DNA of 64,000 nucleotides, taken from positions 6,592,259 to 6,656,258 of the forward strand of contig JASGKS010000001.1 of the NCBI GenBank assembly GCA_047600485.1. Direction: 5' to 3'. The stretch is from Archangium sp. Lineage in GTDB: Bacteria; Myxococcota; Myxococcia; Myxococcales; Myxococcaceae. This document shows positions 7,183 to 59,233 of this stretch, piece by piece. The stretch's first letter is position 1, and each line of letters opens with the position of its first letter. Below the pieces are notes generated by a model. That model saw nothing but the letters and a program-made list of their open reading frames with translations, did no database searches and was not told where the DNA came from. Made by a program: the position numbers and the translations under genes.

Positions 7183-7657
7183 ACTCGGCTTCCGCGCTGC
7201 TGAGGTTCGCGGTTGCACGCTCGAGCAGCAGAGCGCCGAGCGAATCACCGAGGCGTGTCGCGACGCCCCCGTCCGGAAAGTCGCCCGACACCCCGAAGAC
7301 GGTCGACCGTCCGGCGGCCAGCTCGTCGCTGCGGTAGCAAACGTACTGTGGGCCGCGTGAAGCGTAGACCCTGACCAGCGCGATGAGTCGGGGGTCGATG
7401 GCCGCGATTCGCTTCTCGGCCCTGTCCTGGTACGGGAGGTCCTCGCGCGGACCACCTCGAGCCAGTGGCCTGAGAAGCTCCCACGGAGTCAGCAGCGAGT
7501 CCGACGGCTCCGCGTCGTCGACTTCCATGTCTGCGATGACGAACGCTTCGACGGGAAACGGAACGCCGTAGCAGGCGAGCAGAATCTCCTCGTTCGACCG
7601 ACCCGCTTCGAGCATCGAGCGAGCCAGCTTCGCCTTCGATGCGAGATCCGCCGGCAT
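6926..7657 (-). CDS. Hypothetical protein; 3' boundary uncertain, overlaps the ankyrin gene
   Basis: Its ATG overlaps the upstream stop (TGATG), suggesting translational coupling. The first ~165 aa look protein-like and the tail is low-complexity, so a frameshift or fusion with the ankyrin gene is possible. Confidence 0.4.
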   Translation of the reverse strand: MPADLASKAKLARSMLEAGRSNEEILLACYGVPFPVEAFVIADMEVDDAEPSDSLLTPWELLRPLARGGPREDLPYQDRAEKRIAAIDPRLIALVRVYASRGPQYVCYRSDELAAGRSTVFGVSGDFPDGGVATRLGDSLGALLLERATANLSSAEAEYASPSNRGAGFDRSRRGRGRASEHGERRRPGRADRGTPCRKRETDQRVAVEAARTSEEPHRGGRVGRRREAAFAARRGRRHRSTR

Positions 7658-49694: not shown

Positions 49695-50366
49695 GTGGCA
49701 AGGTGGCAGGCCATGATTCGTCGTGCGTTGCAGCGTCTTCGGGAAGTGGGGCCACTGGAAGTGGCGCGTCGGGTGTCGGTGCGTGCGGAAGCCGCGGTGT
49801 GGAACCGGGTCTTCGTGGCGCAGACCGAAGGCGGGCCGTCGCCGGGCCCCGAGTTTCCGGAGTCCATCGCGTACGAGCCGTTGCCGTGGATGTTGGTGCG
49901 CCGGTCGATTGGAGCGCTGGAGCTGCAGCCGCACGACGTGTTCCTCGACTACGGCTGCGGCATGGGTCGAGCGTTGTTGATGGCGGCGCGTGCGGGGCCG
50001 CGGCGGGTCATCGGAGTGGACTTGATGGAGCCGCTGGTCGAGGCCGCGCGTCGCAACGCGGTGACGAGCCGCTCGCGCATCAAGTCGCCCATCGAAGTGC
50101 ACGCGGCGGACGCGATGACGTGGCAGGTGCCGGATGATGTGACGGCGGTGTACCTGTTCAACCCGTTCGTGGGGTCGGTGATGGCGGCGGTGCAGGCGCG
50201 GCTGCTCGAGTCGTTGAAGCGCAAGCCGCGCGCGGTGCGGGTGCTCTACGCGCGGGTGGCGAAGGAGCAGAACTTGTTCGCCGGGCTCGATTGGTTGCGC
50301 ATGGACCGCACGGTGGATGAGGGCGTGTTCCGTGATTTGCGGCTCGAGCTGTACGTCACGCGCTGA
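49695..50366 (+). CDS. Class I SAM-dependent methyltransferase
   Basis: Motif I LDYGCGMG and an acidic motif II. Confidence 0.7.
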   Translation: MARWQAMIRRALQRLREVGPLEVARRVSVRAEAAVWNRVFVAQTEGGPSPGPEFPESIAYEPLPWMLVRRSIGALELQPHDVFLDYGCGMGRALLMAARAGPRRVIGVDLMEPLVEAARRNAVTSRSRIKSPIEVHAADAMTWQVPDDVTAVYLFNPFVGSVMAAVQARLLESLKRKPRAVRVLYARVAKEQNLFAGLDWLRMDRTVDEGVFRDLRLELYVTR

Positions 50367-50389
50367 TCACCGGTTCGTTAGTTAACTAA

Positions 50390-51112
50390 CTAGCCTGCCA
50401 GCTGGCGCACGATCGCTGAATAGGCACGAATCTCCTCAGCAACCAACGAGCGACGATTGCGAAACCGGATCAAGATCTCTTTGATTGCTCGCGTTGCCGC
50501 TGGCGAACGATTCGCGACCTGCGTTGCGACGGCCCGCGCGTGACTCATCAACTGGTCCTCCTTGAGGACTGCATTGACTAAGCCAGCCTGAACGCCCTCC
50601 TCTGCCGTGAACCGACGCCCAGTGAGCAAGATCTCGGCACCGCGAAGAACTCCCATTCGCTCAAGCGCCAAGAACGATCCACCCATCCCAGGAATAATGC
50701 CAAGCGACAACTCCGGCTGCGAAAACCACGCTCCGTGTGCAGCGAAGACGAGATCTGACGCGAGCACCATTTCGCAACCACCGCCAACCGCCGGACCATT
50801 TACGGCGGCAATGAGCGGCACGGGCACTCTCTGAAGCTCACGCGCGAGTTGTTCAAAAGCCCGATGCGCATGAATCCATTCTTTGCTTGTCTGAGACGCC
50901 CGCTCGGATCGGTCGGCTCCAGAACAGAAGGCCCGGCCCTCGGCACTTAGGATCACAGCCCGTGCACTCCGGTCACGGCGCAGGCGGGATAGAAAACTGC
51001 ACACCGTCCGACACATCTGAACCGAGAGCGCGTTGCGAACGGAAGGCCGATTGAGTCTAATTTCTGCAACGCCCTCAGATGGCCAAGTCAGAATCGCGAG
51101 TTCGTTCGTCAT
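50390..51112 (-). CDS. Enoyl-CoA hydratase/isomerase (crotonase)-family protein
   Basis: Crotonase fold motifs (AAVNGPAVGGGCEM; FSQPELSLGIIPGMGG). Reduced GC. Confidence 0.85.
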   Translation of the reverse strand: MTNELAILTWPSEGVAEIRLNRPSVRNALSVQMCRTVCSFLSRLRRDRSARAVILSAEGRAFCSGADRSERASQTSKEWIHAHRAFEQLARELQRVPVPLIAAVNGPAVGGGCEMVLASDLVFAAHGAWFSQPELSLGIIPGMGGSFLALERMGVLRGAEILLTGRRFTAEEGVQAGLVNAVLKEDQLMSHARAVATQVANRSPAATRAIKEILIRFRNRRSLVAEEIRAYSAIVRQLAG

Positions 51113-51960
51113 TATCTTGCCCCAATCGCTAGCACGACAGCTCCAGCCAAAATCATAGTGGCGCCCAACGCGAGCGGTATTGAGGGCCGCTCTTTGAGCA
51201 AGAAGACACCTAAGACGACGTTGAGCAAGATGCTCGATCGCTTCAACGCGACAACGTAGCCTGTAGTTGCCTCAGGACGCTCAAGTGCCAAGACCATAAA
51301 AAGCAAGGATCCCGCTGCCGCAACTCCGACACTCAAAAGTGAAGGTGAAAAGACAGAAGACCGCCGAATTTCAATTCGCGCAAGAAAGATTGACGCAACT
51401 ACTAAACTAGCGACAGCCAAAAATCCCACCAAGCATCGACTTCGTGCGACTTCTTTCAATAGGAGCCCGTCGATGGCCCACATCATCGCGATGCCGATCC
51501 CCGCCCCCATCCATTGTCCACGTGGAATCTCGCGCTTTTCTTGCTGATGACGACCGAGCACAAATGTACCCAAAGCCACAACACCACATCCGATCGTCAG
51601 GGATGAGTCATAGAGCGATGTTCCGCGAAGGAGTTCAATCGTCACGACAAAGACAATGGATGTTCCAAGAAGTGGGGTCACGACAGAGACGCCGGCGTCG
51701 CGAATAGTTTTCGTAAGAAGATGATTCGAGGCTAACTCGAGGACTACATGCGCAACAAGGAGAAGCGGGAGTTCAGCGATATCTCGAAAAGACTCTTTCC
51801 GAGCAATCGCAACAACAAAGTAGACCAGTGAAGCCGTCGCAAACATCACACCATTAATTTGGCGTTGAGGAAAACCCTCGGACGCACGCTTATTCAAGCC
51901 ATTGCGAGCGGCGTCAAATACAGCACTTAGCACTGCCAACAAAACCCAAACAGACATCAC
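51112..51960 (-). CDS. EamA/DMT-superfamily transporter
   Basis: 10 TM helices with duplicated EamA halves. Low GC. Confidence 0.8.
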   Translation of the reverse strand: MMSVWVLLAVLSAVFDAARNGLNKRASEGFPQRQINGVMFATASLVYFVVAIARKESFRDIAELPLLLVAHVVLELASNHLLTKTIRDAGVSVVTPLLGTSIVFVVTIELLRGTSLYDSSLTIGCGVVALGTFVLGRHQQEKREIPRGQWMGAGIGIAMMWAIDGLLLKEVARSRCLVGFLAVASLVVASIFLARIEIRRSSVFSPSLLSVGVAAAGSLLFMVLALERPEATTGYVVALKRSSILLNVVLGVFLLKERPSIPLALGATMILAGAVVLAIGAR

Positions 51961-53045
51961 GCCACCGCGCGATGCAATGCATGAACAAGCGTCGGCCCGT
52001 CCAACTCTCCAAGGTAATCAATAATAATTCGCGTTGAGTCTCGAACGACCGAATGAGCGAGTTGCTTATCGAATGCGCGACCGGGACTACTCAAACGCCA
52101 AAGATATTCAATTCTCGAGGTCAGCGCTCCACCAAAGGTGAGCAGTTGACCCGGCACAATTCTAATCGAACGGCGGATCATCTGTTCGGCAAGCATCTGT
52201 GCCGCCTCCCGGTCAACCGGAAGCGAGTTGTTGTGCGCAAGAAGGAATGTCGCACCAGAGGGAATTCGAACCAAGTCGGAATTCTCGAACTCATTGCCAA
52301 TAGTGGTGGCGATTACCACTCCCCCGCGCTCAAGACACTCCGCCGAGAATTTCCCCGGAACTGACGGCAAAATATCAGGTTGCGCATCAGTAAACGCAAG
52401 ATCGGCGACAGCAAGTTCGACGCTCCGGCTGCGGAGCTCGCGAACGACGTCGGCACCGAGCGCTCCAGCGGCACCAACAACCACGGCTTGGCGAGTGTCT
52501 GGCGCCAATCTGTCTAGCGCGGCAATGACACCAGTCGCTGTGTACGATGACTTACCCCCGCACCCCCCTTTTTCTCGTGCAATGCCCAACACGTGCTCCG
52601 TGTGCCGGTGAAGTATGTCAGCAACACGGGCGAAGCGCCCAAAGTCCGGAGTGAGCTTCAGGATACCGCCCATTGCATTAAGTCTTGAGCCGATTGTTGC
52701 GAAGAGTTCATCGGCGATGGCTGTGAAACTTGGATTCGCCGGGTCTCTGAGAATCAAGTCAAACTCATTCGTCTTCGCACGAATTACGCACCTTCCACCT
52801 CCAACGCGAGAGCTATGCAGACCGGGCACCGAGGCAACTGACAATCGGCCCACTGCGATGTTGATTAGGCGGTTCTTGATTGCGCTCTCAAAAGAGGCGA
52901 GCGAGCGCACCGTCGCATCGGCCTCTTCGTCCGAGCATCTCGCATCAACAAGGCGCGTGCCACCATAGTGGTACACCACATCACTTCGTCCCTCATGAGC
53001 CAGCCATACGGAAGCGATGCGTGTGTCAAACATTTCTACTTCCAT
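51957..53045 (-). CDS. Glu/Leu/Phe/Val-dehydrogenase-family-like protein (atypical GGGR in place of GGGK)
   Basis: YGGTRLV ... EADATVRSLA ... RVGGGRCVI resembles the ELFV-DH N-domain, followed by a VVVGAAGALGADVV Rossmann fold. Confidence 0.55.
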   Translation of the reverse strand: MEVEMFDTRIASVWLAHEGRSDVVYHYGGTRLVDARCSDEEADATVRSLASFESAIKNRLINIAVGRLSVASVPGLHSSRVGGGRCVIRAKTNEFDLILRDPANPSFTAIADELFATIGSRLNAMGGILKLTPDFGRFARVADILHRHTEHVLGIAREKGGCGGKSSYTATGVIAALDRLAPDTRQAVVVGAAGALGADVVRELRSRSVELAVADLAFTDAQPDILPSVPGKFSAECLERGGVVIATTIGNEFENSDLVRIPSGATFLLAHNNSLPVDREAAQMLAEQMIRRSIRIVPGQLLTFGGALTSRIEYLWRLSSPGRAFDKQLAHSVVRDSTRIIIDYLGELDGPTLVHALHRAVA

Positions 53046-53776
53046 TCACTGCCTCCTTCAGAAATCGCGAGAAGCGCAGAGATGATTGCCCGACGAGCCC
53101 CTCGAAACGAGTCGATCGATCGAAGATATGTTCGTGCGCTCTCGTCCGCGGCATCATCGCTGACAATCTTTACACACGCAAAAGGAATGCCGAACCGAGA
53201 ACACGTCTGCGCAACGGCAGACGCCTCCATGTCGAGTGCAATTGCGTCCAATGAGATTCCCGCCCGAATGCTCTCACGGGCCGCAGTTGAAGCGACGAAC
53301 TTGTCGCCAGACAGGAGCAGTCCTCCGTACGAAATCGAGGCGACATTCGACAATGAAGACTTAACAATCTGCGCGAGCTTGATGTTTGCGCTAAACACAA
53401 GATCGCGATGATCGGACATTGCCTGATATTGAAGAGTGCGCTCTCCAGGGCGCGCCAGCCACGTTACGGAAGGAGAGATTCCGCCGAAGTCATGTTGGGC
53501 AAACGTCGTAGGAATCAGAATCGAGCCTACCTGGTGCTTTTCCGTGAGCGCCGCGCAGTATCCGAAATTCAGAACACATCGAAGATCAGAAGCCCCAGCC
53601 GCGAATGCGATGGCTGAGGCCGCTGCAACCTTGCCAACGCCGCTCAGCACAATGCACGACCGGGTCGGAATTGCATCTCGCTCGGGCGCGGTACGAAGAT
53701 CAACAACGCGAATCGATCCGGGCAGGTCCACCCCATCGAGTTCCTCGCGCATGGCCACCTGAATTATGGAGGTCAT
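53036..53776 (-). CDS. PNP_UDP-family nucleosidase (MTA/SAH-nucleosidase-like)
   Basis: ALDMEASAVAQTC...FACVKIVSD matches the MTAN EMEGAA...RxISD core. Confidence 0.7.
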   Translation of the reverse strand: MTSIIQVAMREELDGVDLPGSIRVVDLRTAPERDAIPTRSCIVLSGVGKVAAASAIAFAAGASDLRCVLNFGYCAALTEKHQVGSILIPTTFAQHDFGGISPSVTWLARPGERTLQYQAMSDHRDLVFSANIKLAQIVKSSLSNVASISYGGLLLSGDKFVASTAARESIRAGISLDAIALDMEASAVAQTCSRFGIPFACVKIVSDDAADESARTYLRSIDSFRGARRAIISALLAISEGGSEWK

Positions 53777-55890
53777 TGTTCAAATCTGAGAATCTCGGGC
53801 GGCAGGTCTTGCGCGACGCGCAGGCCGTACCGTTGTGCCGCCTTGATATTGACACCGCGAAGCGGCGAGTCGCATCGCAGAATCGGTATCTCATAAAGAG
53901 CCTTCTTGCCCATTAGCCATGGAACGACAATTTGCTCAGCAGCGCGACGTCCCGAGTCGATGTCGTTGTTCGCGACAAGCGCGACCGCCCCCCGCGTCAT
54001 GTCGGCCTCGTTACCTGCAACAAGCGCCACGGCAAGCGTGCGTGACAGTTGTGCAAAGTTGGCGTTGACGTAGTACCATCCAAACACGACGTCAATCTCG
54101 CGCGGCACAGCTTGAGCGTGTTCAATAGGAGTCACGGCGATGCCGGACTCATGAGAGAACTTGGCGATTCGATCGCGCACGATCACGTCTTGCGCGATTT
54201 GTGCATCATAAAGATACCCGAGTCGTGCATCAGGGAACGTTGTCGACAAGAAACGGAGCGCATTTTCAGGTGTCGCATAGGAGACGCCAGCGATGTTTCC
54301 GCGCCTCTTGTCGCCGTCCATGGACGAGACAAGCCCTGACGCTACAGGGTCGGTCACGCCAGCAAACACGATCGGCAGCTTGTCGCGATGTAATCGCAAT
54401 GCATCGACACTAACTTGAGTACCAATTGTGAAGAGGAGTGCTGGCGGTCTCTCAAACCGCTCGAGCAGTTCTCGGACGGCGCCTTGATTTGCGGCGAAGT
54501 CGCGGTCGCTGCTTCCTGGTGAGCCGATCGTGCGCTCGAAACGAGGTGCCAGTCCAGTGGGCGCCAGCAATTCGCGGAGACGGCTCTTGAACGCATCTTC
54601 GATCGTGCGTGCGTACTCTGCGTCTCCGTTGAGCACAACCGCAACATCGACAATCTTCGCCCCATCGTTCTTTGCGGGCTGGTCGGATCGCGCAGCTGCG
54701 ACCCCCGCGGCAAACACGATCAAGAATGGGACGAGAATCGTTAAAGATGCGGCAATCAGTATGCGAATCAGCCGGAAGCGATGCGGCCATTTCCAGCGCG
54801 CGACAGCTGCTTCACGAAGCGCGTTCACGCGATTTACGGCTTCGGCATACTCCGCGGCCGTCGGTTCTTTGTCTTTGAGAAGGGGCAGGCCGTGCGGTTC
54901 TAAGTGGAGAAAGCGCAAAACGGCAAGTCTGCCGGACTCCGCCATGAGTTCTTTATCCAACTGGCCAATCGAGAAGTCGACCGTTCCTATTGGGGCCGTG
55001 TTGATTCGAACAATGCAATGCCGGTTCGCCTCAATCGCAAGGTTCTCATCCTGCCCTAGAAATATTCTAAATACGTGTTTGAGAACGGTCGTCGCCGATA
55101 GCGTTGCATCTGACGGACGATCGGGCTTCGATGCATCGTGCAAATACAACCCGAGAACATTGGCGTGGGCCCATTCGCGGCGAGCTTGATCGAGTGCGAA
55201 GTTGGCAACAAGCCCACCGTCGAACAGTATGTTTTTTCCGACTACCTGTGGTTCAAAGAAACCCGGGATTGCGACGCTGCACCTTACGGCGTGCTCGACG
55301 TCGTCCTCAGGTGAACCGAAAAGGACGGTGTTCGGCGTGCCCGTGCTTGAGGCGACGACTAACGCCCCGTGTTTCAAGCTCCGGAACTTCGCCCCGAGGT
55401 AGTCATCCGGCTCAATTCGTTCACGGCCATTCGAATGCGGGCGCCAGCGCAATGCATGTTCGATAAAGCGACCAATCGGCTTCGTGCTGAAAGCGAATCC
55501 CCTGAAAAGAGGTACAAGGATTCTAAACCAAATGACTAACTCAAAAAAAAGATAGGCAATGGCGCGGAGCACGAGACGCCATCGAGGCGGTCGCGGTCTT
55601 TCACTCTCTCTCCATGGAGGTTGGGACCACTCCGGTTCCCAGCTTTCAACCAGAAAATCGGAGAATCGTTGCGCGTTAATGATTGCGGCTGTCGTCTTCG
55701 CATCGTAACCCATTGCTAGGACAATCGCCGTCATCGCACCTGCAGAGGTACCGGCAAATTGTTCGAAACGGACATCAACACGATTGGTCAGCTCCAGAAG
55801 TGCCCCAGCAAATGCGGCGCCTTTTACACCGCCACCATTGAACACAAGCCCAAACTTGGCTCCACGCTCGATCGTCGTTTCACGCTCCAC
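53773..55890 (-). CDS. Patatin-like phospholipase fused via TM helix to ABC-type substrate-binding-like (PF04392-like) domain
   Basis: GGGVKG oxyanion, GTSAG serine and DGG aspartate. TM helix LIRILIAASLTILVPFLIVFAAGV. The C-terminal PIVFAGVTDPVASGLVSSMD...GNIAGVS matches the ABC_sub_bind core. Confidence 0.8.
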   Translation of the reverse strand: MERETTIERGAKFGLVFNGGGVKGAAFAGALLELTNRVDVRFEQFAGTSAGAMTAIVLAMGYDAKTTAAIINAQRFSDFLVESWEPEWSQPPWRESERPRPPRWRLVLRAIAYLFFELVIWFRILVPLFRGFAFSTKPIGRFIEHALRWRPHSNGRERIEPDDYLGAKFRSLKHGALVVASSTGTPNTVLFGSPEDDVEHAVRCSVAIPGFFEPQVVGKNILFDGGLVANFALDQARREWAHANVLGLYLHDASKPDRPSDATLSATTVLKHVFRIFLGQDENLAIEANRHCIVRINTAPIGTVDFSIGQLDKELMAESGRLAVLRFLHLEPHGLPLLKDKEPTAAEYAEAVNRVNALREAAVARWKWPHRFRLIRILIAASLTILVPFLIVFAAGVAAARSDQPAKNDGAKIVDVAVVLNGDAEYARTIEDAFKSRLRELLAPTGLAPRFERTIGSPGSSDRDFAANQGAVRELLERFERPPALLFTIGTQVSVDALRLHRDKLPIVFAGVTDPVASGLVSSMDGDKRRGNIAGVSYATPENALRFLSTTFPDARLGYLYDAQIAQDVIVRDRIAKFSHESGIAVTPIEHAQAVPREIDVVFGWYYVNANFAQLSRTLAVALVAGNEADMTRGAVALVANNDIDSGRRAAEQIVVPWLMGKKALYEIPILRCDSPLRGVNIKAAQRYGLRVAQDLPPEILRFEQ

Positions 55891-56081
55891 AAGTCCCCCG
55901 GATTTCGCAGGCTACTGATTCTTCCCTCGTCAACACAATTGCGAAGTCGAGTCGCTTCCGAGATGTTGCGTTGGCGCTGAGGCAATTCGCGGAGCATCCC
56001 ACTTGAACGGAGGCGATGAGCTTACGTTGTCTCTAGCGTGCCGAAACAGCGGCAAGTTGCATTCGTGTTTCGACAAGACAC

Positions 56082-56843
56082 TCACGCGCGTACCCCAAGC
56101 GACGCCGCGTCAAGACCCTTCCAATTTCCGCGCGCCGCGTAGGGCACCAACCGCGTGAACAGCGACTCGGAAAAATGCCCGCCCTGCAGCGCCGCCTGCG
56201 CCGCAGCGTGATGCGCAGAGTCTCTCGCCCACCCCACGAGCTCCGCTTCCGAGCGCCACAGGGTGAAGGTGCACTGACGGAACACCGGCGCTTCGCCCAA
56301 CCCGATCGAGAGCAGGCACGCCTCGCTCCGCGCGATGGCTTCCTGCGCCTTCGGCGCGTGCTCCCAGAACTCCGTCGCCCGCGAAGGCTTGATGGAGCCG
56401 CGCGTCAGCGAAGCGATGACTCCGCCGCTCGGTGCAGGGACGCTCAGCGCAACCGGCTCCACGGAGTCCCACGCGCCACGGCTCGCGTACGCGCGCAGCT
56501 TCATCGTCAGCCAGCTGTTCCCCCGCGCGCGATACAGCGCGAGCTGCTCCGAGCTCTCGAGCCACGCATCGGCCGCCGCGTCGTCGTCGAACACCGCGAA
56601 CAACCCCTGGTGCGAAACGCTCGGCTTCAAACCAAACCCGCCCTCGTGACCCGAGCCGAGCACCTTGCGAAAACGCACTCCGGGCACGCGAGACAAGGGC
56701 CACCGCCCGAACATCAGGTTGCGGATGCCCGCCCACCGCGCGCCGGGCGCGAAGTCGACGATGGCGAGGACTGCGACTGAGCCGGGGGGCTGCACCGGGG
56801 CTCGCGTATCAGAGATGCGGGCTGCCCCCCCAACCAGGACCAC
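56082..56843 (-). CDS. Hypothetical protein
   Basis: 253-aa ORF. High GC returns here; the start is uncertain. Confidence 0.4.
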   Translation of the reverse strand: MVLVGGAARISDTRAPVQPPGSVAVLAIVDFAPGARWAGIRNLMFGRWPLSRVPGVRFRKVLGSGHEGGFGLKPSVSHQGLFAVFDDDAAADAWLESSEQLALYRARGNSWLTMKLRAYASRGAWDSVEPVALSVPAPSGGVIASLTRGSIKPSRATEFWEHAPKAQEAIARSEACLLSIGLGEAPVFRQCTFTLWRSEAELVGWARDSAHHAAAQAALQGGHFSESLFTRLVPYAARGNWKGLDAASLGVRA

Positions 56844-56952: not shown

Positions 56953-57561
56953 TCAATTCGGCAAGACAAGCTGCGAACCGTCTCGCAACCACACGCGCGT
57001 GCCCGCGGAGCTGCGCTCCACGCGCTCGGGAACTTCGAGCCATTGCTTCACTGCGCCCTCAGGCACGTCACGCCGCCACGCCGCATCGAGCTGCGCGGTG
57101 GTGTCGAACGTCAAATTCGCCAGCCGCCGTTCCACTTCGCCAGACTCGCCCATGCCCAGCACCATCGGGTCGAGCAGCAACCCCACCAGCGCCTCGTGGA
57201 GCGCTGCCCGCTCGCCCGCCGTCAGCTCCGACGCCGCCAACGCCACCCGCGCGCGCAACCGCTGGTCGAGCACCGGCCGCGGGCCCGCGAACTGCGTCAG
57301 CGCCGCCTCTCCGACAATCCAATCATCGACCCAACCGTGCGCCGTTCCATCGGTCACCGCGTCGTCTTCGGAGTCGAGGTAGCGCAACGCGCGCGCCAGA
57401 CCCAGTCGTGACGCGGGCGCGCGGTCGGGCTCGTCGAGCTGCGTCTTCAAGCGCAGCCGCAGCGCGCTCACTTCCGGCGGAGGCCTCTCGCTCGAACACG
57501 CGGAAGCAAACGCCATCGCGAACCCCACCACCACACCCCACCCCATCGCGCGCCGAGCCAT
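56953..57561 (-). CDS. Lipoprotein, function unknown
   Basis: Lipobox (FASAC|S). The ORF extension upstream of Met101 was rejected. Confidence 0.55.
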   Translation of the reverse strand: MARRAMGWGVVVGFAMAFASACSSERPPPEVSALRLRLKTQLDEPDRAPASRLGLARALRYLDSEDDAVTDGTAHGWVDDWIVGEAALTQFAGPRPVLDQRLRARVALAASELTAGERAALHEALVGLLLDPMVLGMGESGEVERRLANLTFDTTAQLDAAWRRDVPEGAVKQWLEVPERVERSSAGTRVWLRDGSQLVLPN

Positions 57562-57691
57562 GCGGCAACTCTCAGCAACGCGCGTGCCTCGTGACGTGCT
57601 CGGGCGAACTGTCCAATCGAGTGGACAGCACACACGCACCAGTCGCTCTCTGACGTGTGGCGCTTTCGTTGCACTTGAAATTCTCGTGGCG

Positions 57692-59233
57692 ATGCGCGCG
57701 CTCATCACCGTCGATCGGCTGGTACCTTCGCCGGTCGTGACCCATACAGATCGACTGAGGCTCGAGCGCACGTTGCTCGCTTCGCTCCTGAAGTTGACCC
57801 GGGAAGACGCAGACGAGAAGCAGGTGCGCAGCTGCCTGCAGCTCCTCGGCAGCGTCACCAAAGCGCGCCGCGTCTACCTCGAGGTCTACCAACTCGACGA
57901 AGACGAGAAGCCGCGGTGGCAGGTGAGTGAAGGCTTCTCCGATGACGAAGCCGACGCCGTGCACCAGCTCACCTCGCGCGGAATCGTCGCTGCGGCGCTG
58001 GCGTCGGGCGAAACGGTGCACACGCCCTTCGCGCTGCTCGACGACCGCTTCAAGGACCGCCCCAGCGTGCAGAGCCGTCGCCTCGAGGCCGTGCTCTGCG
58101 TGCCGGTCGGTGAGAACGGCGGCGTGCTGTATCTGGAAGGCGCTCCCGACGGAGGCCCGTTCCAACCCGAAGACGTCGAGCTGGTGATGGAAGTCGGAGC
58201 CGCGCTCGGCCCACTCCTCGAGCGTTTGTCGGAGCGCGCCGCGGCCCAGACGCCCGACTCCGACCCCACGCGCGCCTGGCGCGAACGGCTGCTCCTCACC
58301 GGAATGGTCGGCCGCTCGCCGCGCCTCGTCGAGGTCTTCAGCCAGGTCGAGCTCGCCGCTCCCAATCAGGTGCCGGTGCTCATCAGCGGAGAGACCGGCA
58401 CCGGCAAGACCCAGCTCGCGCGCGTCATTCACGACAACGGCCCGCGCCGCGCGTTTCCCTTCGTCGAGCTCAACTGCGCCAACTTCAACGAGGGGCTCAT
58501 CGAGGCCGAGCTGTTCGGCACCGTGCCCGGCGCGTTCACCGGAGCGACCAAGCGCCGCGGTCAGGTCGAGGCCGCGCACGGCGGCACGCTGTTCCTCGAC
58601 GAAATCGCTGAGCTGCCGCTGAGCGCGCAGGCGCGGTTGCTCCAGCTGCTGCAGAGCCAGCGCTTCTTCCCTGTCGGCAGCACGCAAGAGCAATCGGCCA
58701 ACGTGCGCTTCATGGCGGCGACCCACCAGCCGCTCGACAAGCTGATGGCCGAGGGCAAGTTCCGCGAAGACCTCTTCTTCCGCTTGAACGTGGTCACCAT
58801 TCGCATGCCCTCGCTGCGAGAGCGCAGCGGCGACGTGCCTGACCTGGTGGTGGAGCTGCTTCGCGTCATCTCAGCCGAGGTCGGCTGCGCGCCGCTGCCG
58901 CCGTCACACGGGCTGCTGCGCTCGTGCCGCACGCTCGACCTGCCGGGCAACGTGCGCGGGCTCAAGTCGGTGCTCACCGTCGCGTTGCTGCGCGCGAATC
59001 AAGAAGGCGCGGCGCAGGTCGAGACCCACCACCTCACTCCGGGCAGCACCGACGGCCCGGCGCAGACCTTCCACGGGCTGACGCGCGCGTTTCAAAGAGA
59101 CCTGCTGCAGCGCGAGCTCGATTCCACCGGGTGGAACGTTTCCGAAGTGGCGCGGCGCATCGATTTGAGCCGGGCCCATCTCTACAACCTGATTCGTGAA
59201 CTTCAGCTGAGGAGCCCCACCAAGGAGAAGTGA
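57692..59233 (+). CDS. Sigma-54-dependent enhancer-binding protein (GAF-like N-domain + AAA+ + Fis HTH)
   Basis: GETGTGKT Walker A, GAFTGA sigma54-contact motif, ESELFG-like motif, and a C-terminal HTH (VSEVARRIDLSRAHLYNLIRE). Confidence 0.85.
   Translation: MRALITVDRLVPSPVVTHTDRLRLERTLLASLLKLTREDADEKQVRSCLQLLGSVTKARRVYLEVYQLDEDEKPRWQVSEGFSDDEADAVHQLTSRGIVAAALASGETVHTPFALLDDRFKDRPSVQSRRLEAVLCVPVGENGGVLYLEGAPDGGPFQPEDVELVMEVGAALGPLLERLSERAAAQTPDSDPTRAWRERLLLTGMVGRSPRLVEVFSQVELAAPNQVPVLISGETGTGKTQLARVIHDNGPRRAFPFVELNCANFNEGLIEAELFGTVPGAFTGATKRRGQVEAAHGGTLFLDEIAELPLSAQARLLQLLQSQRFFPVGSTQEQSANVRFMAATHQPLDKLMAEGKFREDLFFRLNVVTIRMPSLRERSGDVPDLVVELLRVISAEVGCAPLPPSHGLLRSCRTLDLPGNVRGLKSVLTVALLRANQEGAAQVETHHLTPGSTDGPAQTFHGLTRAFQRDLLQRELDSTGWNVSEVARRIDLSRAHLYNLIRELQLRSPTKEK

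Follow-up and report, generated by a model that had tools for sequence, protein, structure and literature searches.

A predicted membrane-anchored patatin-like phospholipase of Archangium sp. with a substrate-binding-like ectodomain, and the operon that encodes it

Introduction

What is the function of a phospholipase that is joined, through a membrane helix, to the fold of a substrate-binding protein (SBP)? This question is raised by a 705-residue protein encoded in a stretch of 64,000 nucleotides (the window) from a 9.4-Mb contig of an Archangium sp. metagenome-assembled genome (MAG), in which a patatin-like domain, a transmembrane (TM) helix and an SBP-like domain follow one another in a single open reading frame (ORF). 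The protein is 100% the same as NCBI entry MFT3711952.1. To our knowledge, the bacterial patatin effectors described so far fall into two kinds, toxins that are injected and soluble enzymes that cytosolic nucleotides activate. The reading favoured here, to which we give slightly better than an even chance, is that the fusion protein is a one-component receptor phospholipase, that is, a regulated membrane-damaging effector switched by an external small molecule.

Results

Domain organisation and predicted topology

The N-terminal half of the fusion protein was matched by the Pfam Patatin profile (PF01734) with 89.6 bits (E 4.1e-25, cut-off 27.7) over profile positions 1-190 of 191, and the conserved patatin module reaches approximately residue 372 (clade profile, residues 10-372). 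Foldseek comparison of this half with the Protein Data Bank (PDB) returned VipD, AbCapV, PlpD and CapE at E values of 1e-11 to 1e-9. The GxSxG nucleophile, DG[AG] aspartate and GGGx[KR]G oxyanion-hole patterns that define patatins are all present, in the forms GTSAG, DGG and GGGVKG, and each is unchanged in four relatives (alignment A1). An initial annotation of the window had described these motifs as an intact catalytic triad; the motifs stand as described, but patatins use a Ser-Asp dyad. The N-terminal 372 residues are a predicted patatin-like lipase in which every catalytic motif is intact.

The TM helix was placed at residues 376-401, a strongly hydrophobic segment with a Kyte-Doolittle mean of up to 2.7 over 19 residues, which is preceded by 5 Lys/Arg residues in the 20 positions before it and followed by 2 in the 20 after. 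In the AlphaFold2 model of the protein (pLDDT 86.3, pTM 0.57) the patatin domain leads into a continuous helix spanning residues 345-402, which is followed by a linker of approximately nine residues and a two-lobed alpha/beta domain (residues 412-705) modelled at a pLDDT mostly above 90. The juxtamembrane part of this helix ends in a basic motif, RW(K/H)WPHRxRxxR, that is common to all close relatives (P0001-4, P0140 and P0145) and that is assigned to the lipase and TM module because P0004 keeps it despite an unrelated ectodomain. Given the lack of a signal peptide, the positive-inside bias and the 375-residue N-terminal part, an N-in/C-out topology is predicted, in which the lipase would be cytoplasmic and the binding domain periplasmic, and the fusion protein is a predicted single-pass inner-membrane protein.

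The initial annotation had counted a single TM helix, which both hydrophobicity and the model support, but had left unmentioned a second hydrophobic stretch at residues 104-136, modelled as a helix (residues 103-130) at a pLDDT of only 53-58. A true TM helix at this position was rejected on logical grounds, since Ser49 and Asp224, which flank the stretch, need to lie in one compartment and the catalytic dyad would otherwise be split. A membrane-dipping lid is proposed for this helix instead.

The C-terminal domain was matched by the Pfam profile ABC_sub_bind (PF04392) over residues 482-692 with 36.6 bits (E 4e-9, cut-off 25.9), and sequence searches of the PDB with this domain returned 6hni, 3lft and 3lkv. 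Both Pfam matches, to Patatin and to PF04392, lie well outside what chance would give. The top Foldseek matches of the C-terminal half were the corresponding three solved PF04392 proteins, 3LKV, 3LFT (with L-Trp) and 6HNI (CD0873), with TM-scores of 0.72-0.75 (on target) over approximately 300 columns. As modelled, the C-terminal 294 residues are a complete class-I solute-binding fold, which belongs to a distinct PF04392 subfamily. Members of this subfamily score 150-250 bits against the clade profile and 49 of 50 match PF04392; the nearest free-standing SBPs are only 25-30% identical, and a search of annotated plasmids found only distant free-standing SBPs.

Approximately 20 positions are conserved across 50 divergent members of the subfamily, whatever the fused domain or compartment: N421, G422, Y426, G490, T491, V493, S494, P506, F509, T513, P515, G535, Y538, Q567, D568, D600, F603, G604 and G647, of which D568 and G604 are found in 50/50. 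The model and the alignment place these residues in loops that directly follow beta-strands, the part of class-I binding proteins in which the ligand sits, and their conservation argues for the retention of a common binding function. The motifs GVTDP and RGAVA are common to canonical PF04392 members and the SBP-like domain. The canonical motifs EHPALD, TPSAQ, NS and DN (DxIFxxxDN) are replaced or deleted in the subfamily, which has cleft-loop motifs of its own (NGxxxY, GTQVS, QD and DxxFGxYY). The ligands of the solved PF04392 proteins are Trp, Tyr or Phe (PMC10443332; PMC6816091).

Taken together, ORF coordinates, Pfam, hydrophobicity, AlphaFold2 and Foldseek confirmed what the initial annotation had proposed, namely that a patatin is fused via a TM helix to an SBP-like domain, and its assignment of the C-terminal half to the PF04392 fold was borne out by profile and structure alike. 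The further proposal that the two domains lie on opposite sides of the membrane survived the HMM, hydrophobicity and structure-prediction tests as a prediction: the SBP-like assignment has profile support, and a TM helix separates two domains predicted to lie on different sides.

Domain partners of the two modules

The partners of the SBP-like module were counted in 50 representatives of the subfamily. Patatin was found in 6, TIR in 3-4, Trypsin_2 in 2 and PG_binding_1 in 2, while Pkinase, TIR+STAND+TPR, HTH_3 and an FAD/NAD oxidoreductase were each found once; further N-termini recognised by inspection comprised multi-TM regions, an alpha/beta-hydrolase-like start and starts with an HExxH motif. 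In many members, as in the window protein, a TM helix lies 10-30 residues ahead of the SBP-like domain. The TIR, STAND, helix-turn-helix (HTH), hydrolase and oxidoreductase fusions lack both a TM helix and a signal peptide, and a few members of the subfamily carry a signal peptide or lipobox. Such a spread of partners is typical of a ligand-sensor module.

The patatin module was found in a similarly varied series of proteins, in all of which (every clade member) it is followed by the TM helix. The patatin and TM unit is placed behind a caspase in P0154 and behind EAD11 in P0261, makes up bare tail-anchored proteins in P0147 and P0148, and precedes a different ectodomain in P0004. The simplest reading of this distribution is that the clade would constitute a membrane-anchored lipase effector with a swappable regulator. 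Because the regulator is the swappable part and the ectodomain is the sole candidate here, the SBP-like ectodomain is the candidate regulator of the window protein. A sensor role for the SBP-like domain is well motivated by this domain shuffling, which provides the main support for a ligand-gated lipase.

Several individual members of the two families were inspected together with their loci. P0146 (1501 residues; L004 6653-11158, from a Polyangiales MAG) combines an nSTAND5-type NTPase, HEAT repeats and the patatin and TM unit, and is tail-anchored without an ectodomain. P0178 (L130 2167-3573, also L131 and L132) joins a TIR domain straight to the SBP-like module and lacks both a TM helix and a signal peptide; its gene stands directly after genes for a LivM/LivG/LivF-type ABC importer, the usual slot of the binding-protein gene, and is followed by an overlapping gene for a 157-residue protein of unknown function. 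P0157 (L137 7883-9781) is a trypsin-TM-SBP-like protein with a divergent Trypco1 gene at 7237-7587, and its neighbours encode anthranilate synthase, chorismate mutase, prephenate dehydrogenase, anthranilate phosphoribosyltransferase and an amino-acid permease; this setting may hint that the sensor module reads compounds related to aromatic amino acids, and the contexts of other SBP-like fusions likewise give a hint of amino-acid metabolism. P0176 (442 residues) joins an XRE-type HTH to the SBP-like module without a TM helix, a layout like that of LacI-like one-component regulators. The commonest sister architecture, a multi-TM N-terminus followed by the SBP-like module in approximately 500 residues, is represented by P0158 (L135 746-2263), the gene of which starts 7 nucleotides after an O-methyltransferase gene (Methyltransf_2; L135 2-739).

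Rarity and recurrence of the architecture

The full patatin-TM-SBP architecture is very rare, being represented by approximately seven clusters among billions of proteins. A word-indexed search of 5.8 billion clusters identified both domains in P0002 (42% identity) and P0003 (38%) only, and also returned P0004, in which the same patatin and TM unit is followed by a Cys-rich C-terminus. P0145 (708 residues), the fragments P0140 and P0151, and the more distant patatin and SBP proteins P0153 and P0163 came to light in addition when 1.84 billion representatives were searched exhaustively with a profile. The relatives come from independent soil and other metagenomes with a GC content of 0.42-0.65, and the recurrence of the architecture at 37-42% identity in such independent sources (P0002, P0003, P0145 and the fragment P0140) led to the rejection of an assembly or frameshift artefact and points to a fusion that has been selected or maintained. 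A genome-wide scan with the patatin profile returned mostly unrelated Amycolatopsis patatins, only L004 being relevant. No description of a patatin-TM-SBP protein, or of any patatin and SBP fusion, was found in the literature, and the remark of the initial annotation that this architecture is uncharacterised appears correct.

Three loci of relatives contain genes associated with mobile DNA or conjugation. The gene for P0153 (JGI 3300078620) lies within a conjugative element that encodes CagX, TrbI, a VirB11-type ATPase, a TraG-like coupling protein, a TrwC-like relaxase and SSB; the fusion gene of L002 is near a VirD4/mad8-like ATPase gene; and L003, the locus of P0004, adjoins an rve transposase gene.

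A five-gene operon within a low-GC island

The fusion gene, which has an SD-like GGGGGA 4-5 nucleotides ahead of its GTG start, is the first of five co-directional genes with stop and start codons that overlap or abut (Table 1). The GC content of the corresponding island is approximately 0.50-0.60 (56% overall), compared with approximately 0.68-0.70 (68%) in the flanks. The stop/start overlaps and the uniformly low GC indicate a single unit, and by these same marks the five genes are identified as an operon that was acquired horizontally and together. Neither this operon with its conserved partner genes nor the sister proteins that carry the SBP-like module without a TM helix figured in the initial annotation. 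Neither direct nor inverted repeats were found at the island edges, nor a tRNA or an integrase; promoter and terminator scans gave background levels, and no Rfam match (riboswitch or leader RNA) was obtained at E values of up to 1 across 50000-56500. PADLOC scans of the operon genes and of the neighbours of relatives returned nothing but the mad8-like ATPase in L002.

Table 1. Coordinates, within the window, of the fusion gene, its encoded features, the other operon genes and the island
Feature	Position	Strand	Basis or remark
Patatin / TM / SBP-like fusion ORF, 705 aa	53773..55890	(-)	First operon gene; GTG start
Patatin-like phospholipase domain, residues 15-236 (Pfam)	55183..55848	(-)	Pfam and Foldseek
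Oxyanion-hole motif GGGVKG, residues 19-24	55819..55836	(-)	Invariant in alignment A1
Nucleophile elbow GTSAG (Ser49; motif from residue 47)	55738..55752	(-)	Invariant in A1, kept across clade
Catalytic Asp224 in DGG motif	55213..55221	(-)	Invariant in A1
Hydrophobic helix inside patatin domain, residues 103-130	55501..55584	(-)	Kyte-Doolittle up to 2.0
Juxtamembrane helix, residues 345-375, ending in RW(K/H)WPHRxRxxR	54766..54858	(-)	Model and conservation
Single TM helix, residues 376-401	54688..54765	(-)	Hydrophobicity; TM at same place clade-wide
Extracytoplasmic (predicted) two-lobed SBP-like domain (PF04392 subfamily), residues 412-705	53776..54657	(-)	Pfam, PDB, Foldseek
MTA/SAH-nucleosidase-like gene (PNP_UDP_1, 246 aa)	53036..53776	(-)	ATG overlaps fusion-gene stop (ATGA)
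Uncharacterised Leu/Phe/Trp-dehydrogenase-fold gene, 362 aa, no Pfam match	51957..53045	(-)	
EamA/DMT-family transporter gene, 282 aa	51112..51960	(-)	Pfam
Enoyl-CoA hydratase/crotonase-family gene, 240 aa	50390..51112	(-)	Last operon gene
Low-GC island	50370..56080	n/a	Coincides exactly with five-gene operon

The 246-residue product of the second gene was matched by PF01048 with 81.5 bits and by solved methylthioadenosine/S-adenosylhomocysteine (MTA/SAH) nucleosidases (MTANs) of the PDB at an E value of 1e-16, and it keeps the motifs AM.EE, MEASA and VSD. Against the equivalog PRK05584 it scored 99.6 bits (cut-off 169), and its similarity to housekeeping MTA/SAH nucleosidases (E 1.8e-28) is far closer than that to the CBASS PNP effector (E 1.1e-3). 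On these scores the protein is classed as a relative of the MTA/SAH nucleosidases.

No Pfam profile, including those for ELFV dehydrogenases, matched the 362-residue product of the third gene. Its model (pLDDT 92.8) has the two domains of the ELFV fold, one of them a Rossmann domain for NAD(P), and was matched by Foldseek to leucine, phenylalanine and tryptophan dehydrogenases at E values of approximately 1e-13 and TM-scores of approximately 0.7; it is referred to here as leucine dehydrogenase (LeuDH)-like. The motif GAAGALG is present, the GGGK motif of the catalytic Lys is not, and the sequence at that site reads G(G/A)RC, in which Arg85 and Cys86 are invariant in 30 sequences. An equivalence of Arg85 to Lys80 of LeuDH is suggested by motif similarity only, the HMM alignment stopping short of this region. 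The family, in which a GGCGGK motif is invariant (alignment A2), comprises at least 232 clusters, all annotated as 'hypothetical', and its hosts include Streptomyces, cyanobacteria, Chloroflexi, Acidobacteria and Ruminococcus. Nothing specific on it was found in the literature.

Homologues of these two proteins accompany the fusion gene in related loci. A LeuDH-like gene adjoins it in all three loci for which DNA was available, the window, L001 (upstream, 39% identity) and L002 (divergent, 45%), so that the gene order varies among loci; a homologue of the nucleosidase gene immediately follows the fusion gene in L002 and at the P0145 locus, as in the window, which gives three of four loci in all. 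Neither the crotonase gene nor the EamA gene was found in L001 or L002. A general partnership of the LeuDH-like and nucleosidase genes with the SBP-like module was tried as an explanation and found to be unsupported. The dependence is one-sided: all of 46 other LeuDH-like loci were without patatin, SBP-like and nucleosidase genes. The other SBP-like fusions (TIR, trypsin, multi-TM and second-type patatin) have no LeuDH-like or nucleosidase neighbours. Elsewhere, LeuDH-like loci hold biosynthetic genes, including those for NRPS (nonribosomal peptide synthetase) adenylation and polyketide synthase (PKS) in nine loci, glyoxalase with Lys/Orn N-monooxygenase and Asp decarboxylase, ATP-grasp, Asn synthase and P450; EamA genes follow LeuDH-like genes in L084 and L107, neither being close to the EamA gene of the window. 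The LeuDH-like family is probably an unrecognised biosynthetic enzyme, usually located in NRPS, PKS or siderophore-like clusters.

Outside the island, a gene of host GC content just upstream (56082-56843, minus strand) resembles spheroidene monooxygenase CrtA, with an NCBIfam score of 152.6 bits, below the cut-off of 300, and a weak ABM-domain match. Further along, a 557-residue ORF on the plus strand (57560-59233), judged by eye, resembles an NtrC-type sigma-54 activator, with a Walker A sequence (GETGTGKT), a GAFTGA motif and a C-terminal HTH.

Discussion

Proposed mechanism

In the mechanism favoured here, a small molecule would bind the two-lobed ectodomain and cause its lobes to close, and closure would, via the short linker, alter how the TM and juxtamembrane helices pack or oligomerise. 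This rearrangement would switch the lipase, which could then attack inner-leaflet phospholipids with the help of the hydrophobic lid helix. The switch may work by oligomerisation, as CapV and CapE have been solved as ligand-bound filaments (PDB entry titles). The role of the protein would be that of a regulated membrane-damaging effector of the conflict or programmed-death type, which is suggested by the TIR, STAND, caspase, trypsin and EAD partners that the two modules otherwise have.

A more speculative step concerns the ligand, which might be an amino-acid-like metabolite made, processed and exported by the genes that were transferred together with the fusion gene, the LeuDH-like enzyme, the MTAN-like nucleosidase and the crotonase being candidates for its production and EamA for its export. 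Were this so, the operon could amount to a self-contained cassette that makes, exports and senses a molecule and kills, with the ectodomain reading the presence or absence of the cell's own molecule in the periplasm; we regard this extension as fairly unlikely. If true, the cassette would serve a social bacterium as a switch, carried on mobile DNA, for metabolite-based kin recognition, addiction or programmed death. On the same reading, and more widely, the SBP-like subfamily would constitute a small-molecule sensor, not recognised before, for TIR, STAND, protease, kinase and lipase effectors.

Several observations weigh against the favoured mechanism or parts of it. The step in which the operon makes the ligand draws on four loci, and the LeuDH-like and SBP-like genes were unpaired in the 46 other LeuDH-like loci and beside the other SBP-like fusions. 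The arrangement of the domains relative to one another in the AlphaFold2 model is uncertain, as its pTM value indicates. The replacement of EHPALD, TPSAQ and DN suggests that the ligand class of canonical PF04392 proteins is not transferable to the subfamily. Furthermore, the module occurs without a TM helix or signal peptide in the TIR, STAND, HTH and hydrolase fusions; a periplasmic location is therefore not inherent in the module, which may have an ordinary metabolite of the cell interior as its ligand. Finally, no neighbouring gene fits any known defence-system model.

Alternative explanations

The protein might instead be an abortive-infection or anti-mobile-element effector, in which the ectodomain reads no small metabolite but responds to something that happens at the envelope, for example the adsorption or injection of a phage, contact by a conjugative pilus or peptidoglycan damage, and the nucleosidase is a second, nucleotide-depleting effector. 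The partners of both modules (TIR, STAND, caspase, trypsin with Trypco1, and EAD11) are classic conflict domains, PNPase is listed among the effector domains of such systems (PMC8195603), the window copy is part of a horizontally acquired island, and relatives are found in a conjugative element (P0153), by a VirD4/mad8-like ATPase gene (L002) and by a transposase gene (L003). However, the fold is a small-molecule-binding one with a conserved cleft, the nucleosidase is nearer to housekeeping enzymes than to the CBASS effector, the LeuDH-like enzyme, exporter and crotonase would have no obvious role, and models of known defence systems were not matched, so that we judge this explanation unlikely. 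The biosynthetic neighbours of the LeuDH-like family (NRPS, PKS, ATP-grasp, N-monooxygenase and decarboxylase genes) point in another direction, towards a metabolic lipase that feeds membrane fatty acyl groups into a pathway encoded by the operon, the ectodomain capturing a substrate or product. The crotonase and exporter genes and the joint acquisition of all five genes would fit such a pathway, which we nevertheless consider quite improbable: elsewhere the partners of the patatin clade are STAND, caspase and EAD11, not biosynthetic genes, the crotonase and EamA genes are missing at L001 and L002, 0/46 other LeuDH-like loci have a patatin gene, and a single helix cannot pass a substrate from a periplasmic domain to a cytoplasmic active site.

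The loss of canonical amino-acid-binding motifs raises the question of whether the SBP-like domain binds a ligand at all. It could have become a periplasmic anchor, dimerisation or adhesion domain of a membrane lipase that is constitutive or otherwise regulated, just as CD0873 (PF04392) doubles as an adhesin (PMC6816091), and some members of the patatin clade work without any ectodomain; the approximately 20 cleft-loop positions conserved over 50 divergent members, two of them in 50/50, make us strongly doubt this. An ordinary ABC-transporter SBP, as which the protein is publicly annotated, deserves almost no credence. It is favoured by the NCBI name and the PF04392 match, whereas the domain is fused to a lipase plus TM module of 400 residues, a Pfam scan found no ABC permease or ATPase gene in the operon, its flanks or the L001 and L002 loci, and the TrpX equivalog model scored 47.8 bits against a cut-off of 390. 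This identity was rejected on account of the missing transporter genes and the fusion to a lipase, and the public name 'ABC transporter substrate binding protein' is misleading. The receptor phospholipase thus described remains the reading that we prefer.

Significance

The fusion of a sensor to an effector is in itself a familiar design; what is new is that a known effector is paired with a known sensor fold, within a rare clade and with unusual metabolic partners. If the lipase is gated as proposed, a chemical cue from outside would lead directly to the cell's own membrane being destroyed or remodelled, without any second messenger or kinase cascade. The analysis also brings out two under-described module families, a PF04392-derived sensor and a membrane-anchored patatin effector, as well as a widespread, uncharacterised family of dehydrogenase-like enzymes, and corrects a public annotation. 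Each of these families offers a concrete way to approach, by experiment, the cell-death and conflict systems of social bacteria.

Comparison with known systems

The initial annotation had drawn an analogy to the CBASS effector CapV. The fusion protein shares with CapV and CapE the patatin fold and Ser-Asp dyad (Foldseek E approximately 1e-11 to AbCapV and CapE), and these are lipases that are held off until a small ligand arrives and then degrade the cell's own membrane. However, CapV and CapE are soluble proteins to which cyclic nucleotides of the cytosol bind directly, and a CD-NTase is encoded next to them, whereas the fusion protein has a TM helix and a predicted extracytoplasmic binding domain. 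The CapV equivalog NF041079 scored 24.5 bits against a cut-off of 200 and aligned with residues 15-73 only, the PADLOC phospholipase models matched residues 15-70 only, and no CD-NTase or nucleotidyltransferase is found among the five operon genes. Membership of CBASS, as opposed to analogy, was rejected on these low scores, confined to the first 60 or so residues, and the missing CD-NTase. The catalytic fold is also common to ExoU, VipD and PlpD, but these are exported toxins intended for other cells, and the fusion protein, lacking a signal peptide or secretion domain, is predicted to be anchored in the membrane of its producer.

The SBP-like domain has the Pfam family, the fold and the GVTDP and RGAVA motifs of TrpX, CD0873, VC_1101/3LKV and SP1069/3LFT. 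These canonical proteins, which are free lipoproteins or periplasmic, supply importers of the BPD_transp_2 / ABC ATPase type with Trp, Tyr or Phe, whereas the SBP-like domain is tethered to a lipase by a TM helix, has no transporter and belongs to a separate subfamily with altered cleft loops.

The nearest published theme, and the only precedent found, is a single sentence on caspase-TM-PBP proteins (PBP, periplasmic binding protein) in 'System 4', an EACC1 two-gene system (Kaur et al., 2020, PMC7159879). Here too a cytoplasmic death-type effector, TM helices and an extracellular PBP domain are combined in one polypeptide, and the hosts are multicellular bacteria. In System 4, however, the constant domain is the caspase, a 5' EACC1 gene is needed, an N-terminal caspase (or cyclase) is expected on the TM-PBP protein and the PBP is read as one of many variable 'effector' domains, whereas the fusion protein has a patatin effector at its N-terminus, no caspase, and metabolic-type enzymes as partners. 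The gene upstream of it is the CrtA-like monooxygenase gene, outside the island, and the Pfam EACC1 profile had no match among the neighbouring genes scanned, a stretch of 190 nucleotides upstream of the fusion gene having been left untranslated.

Two further systems resemble the fusion protein in their membrane arrangement. PlaF of Pseudomonas aeruginosa is a TM-anchored phospholipase A1 that is regulated by dimerisation and fatty acids and remodels the cell's own membrane. The fusion protein would resemble it as a single-pass inner-membrane phospholipase for which control by ligand and oligomeric state is proposed here; PlaF differs in being an alpha/beta-hydrolase with a periplasmic catalytic domain and no separate sensor domain. 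In Venus-flytrap receptors with PBP ectodomains, such as BvgS-type kinases, natriuretic-peptide receptor guanylyl cyclases and class C G-protein-coupled receptors, a two-lobed domain outside the membrane is connected by one or a few TM helices to a catalytic output inside. The fusion protein would share this receptor logic, with the difference that a phospholipase takes the place of the kinase or cyclase as its output, so that the 'signal' would be direct membrane chemistry.

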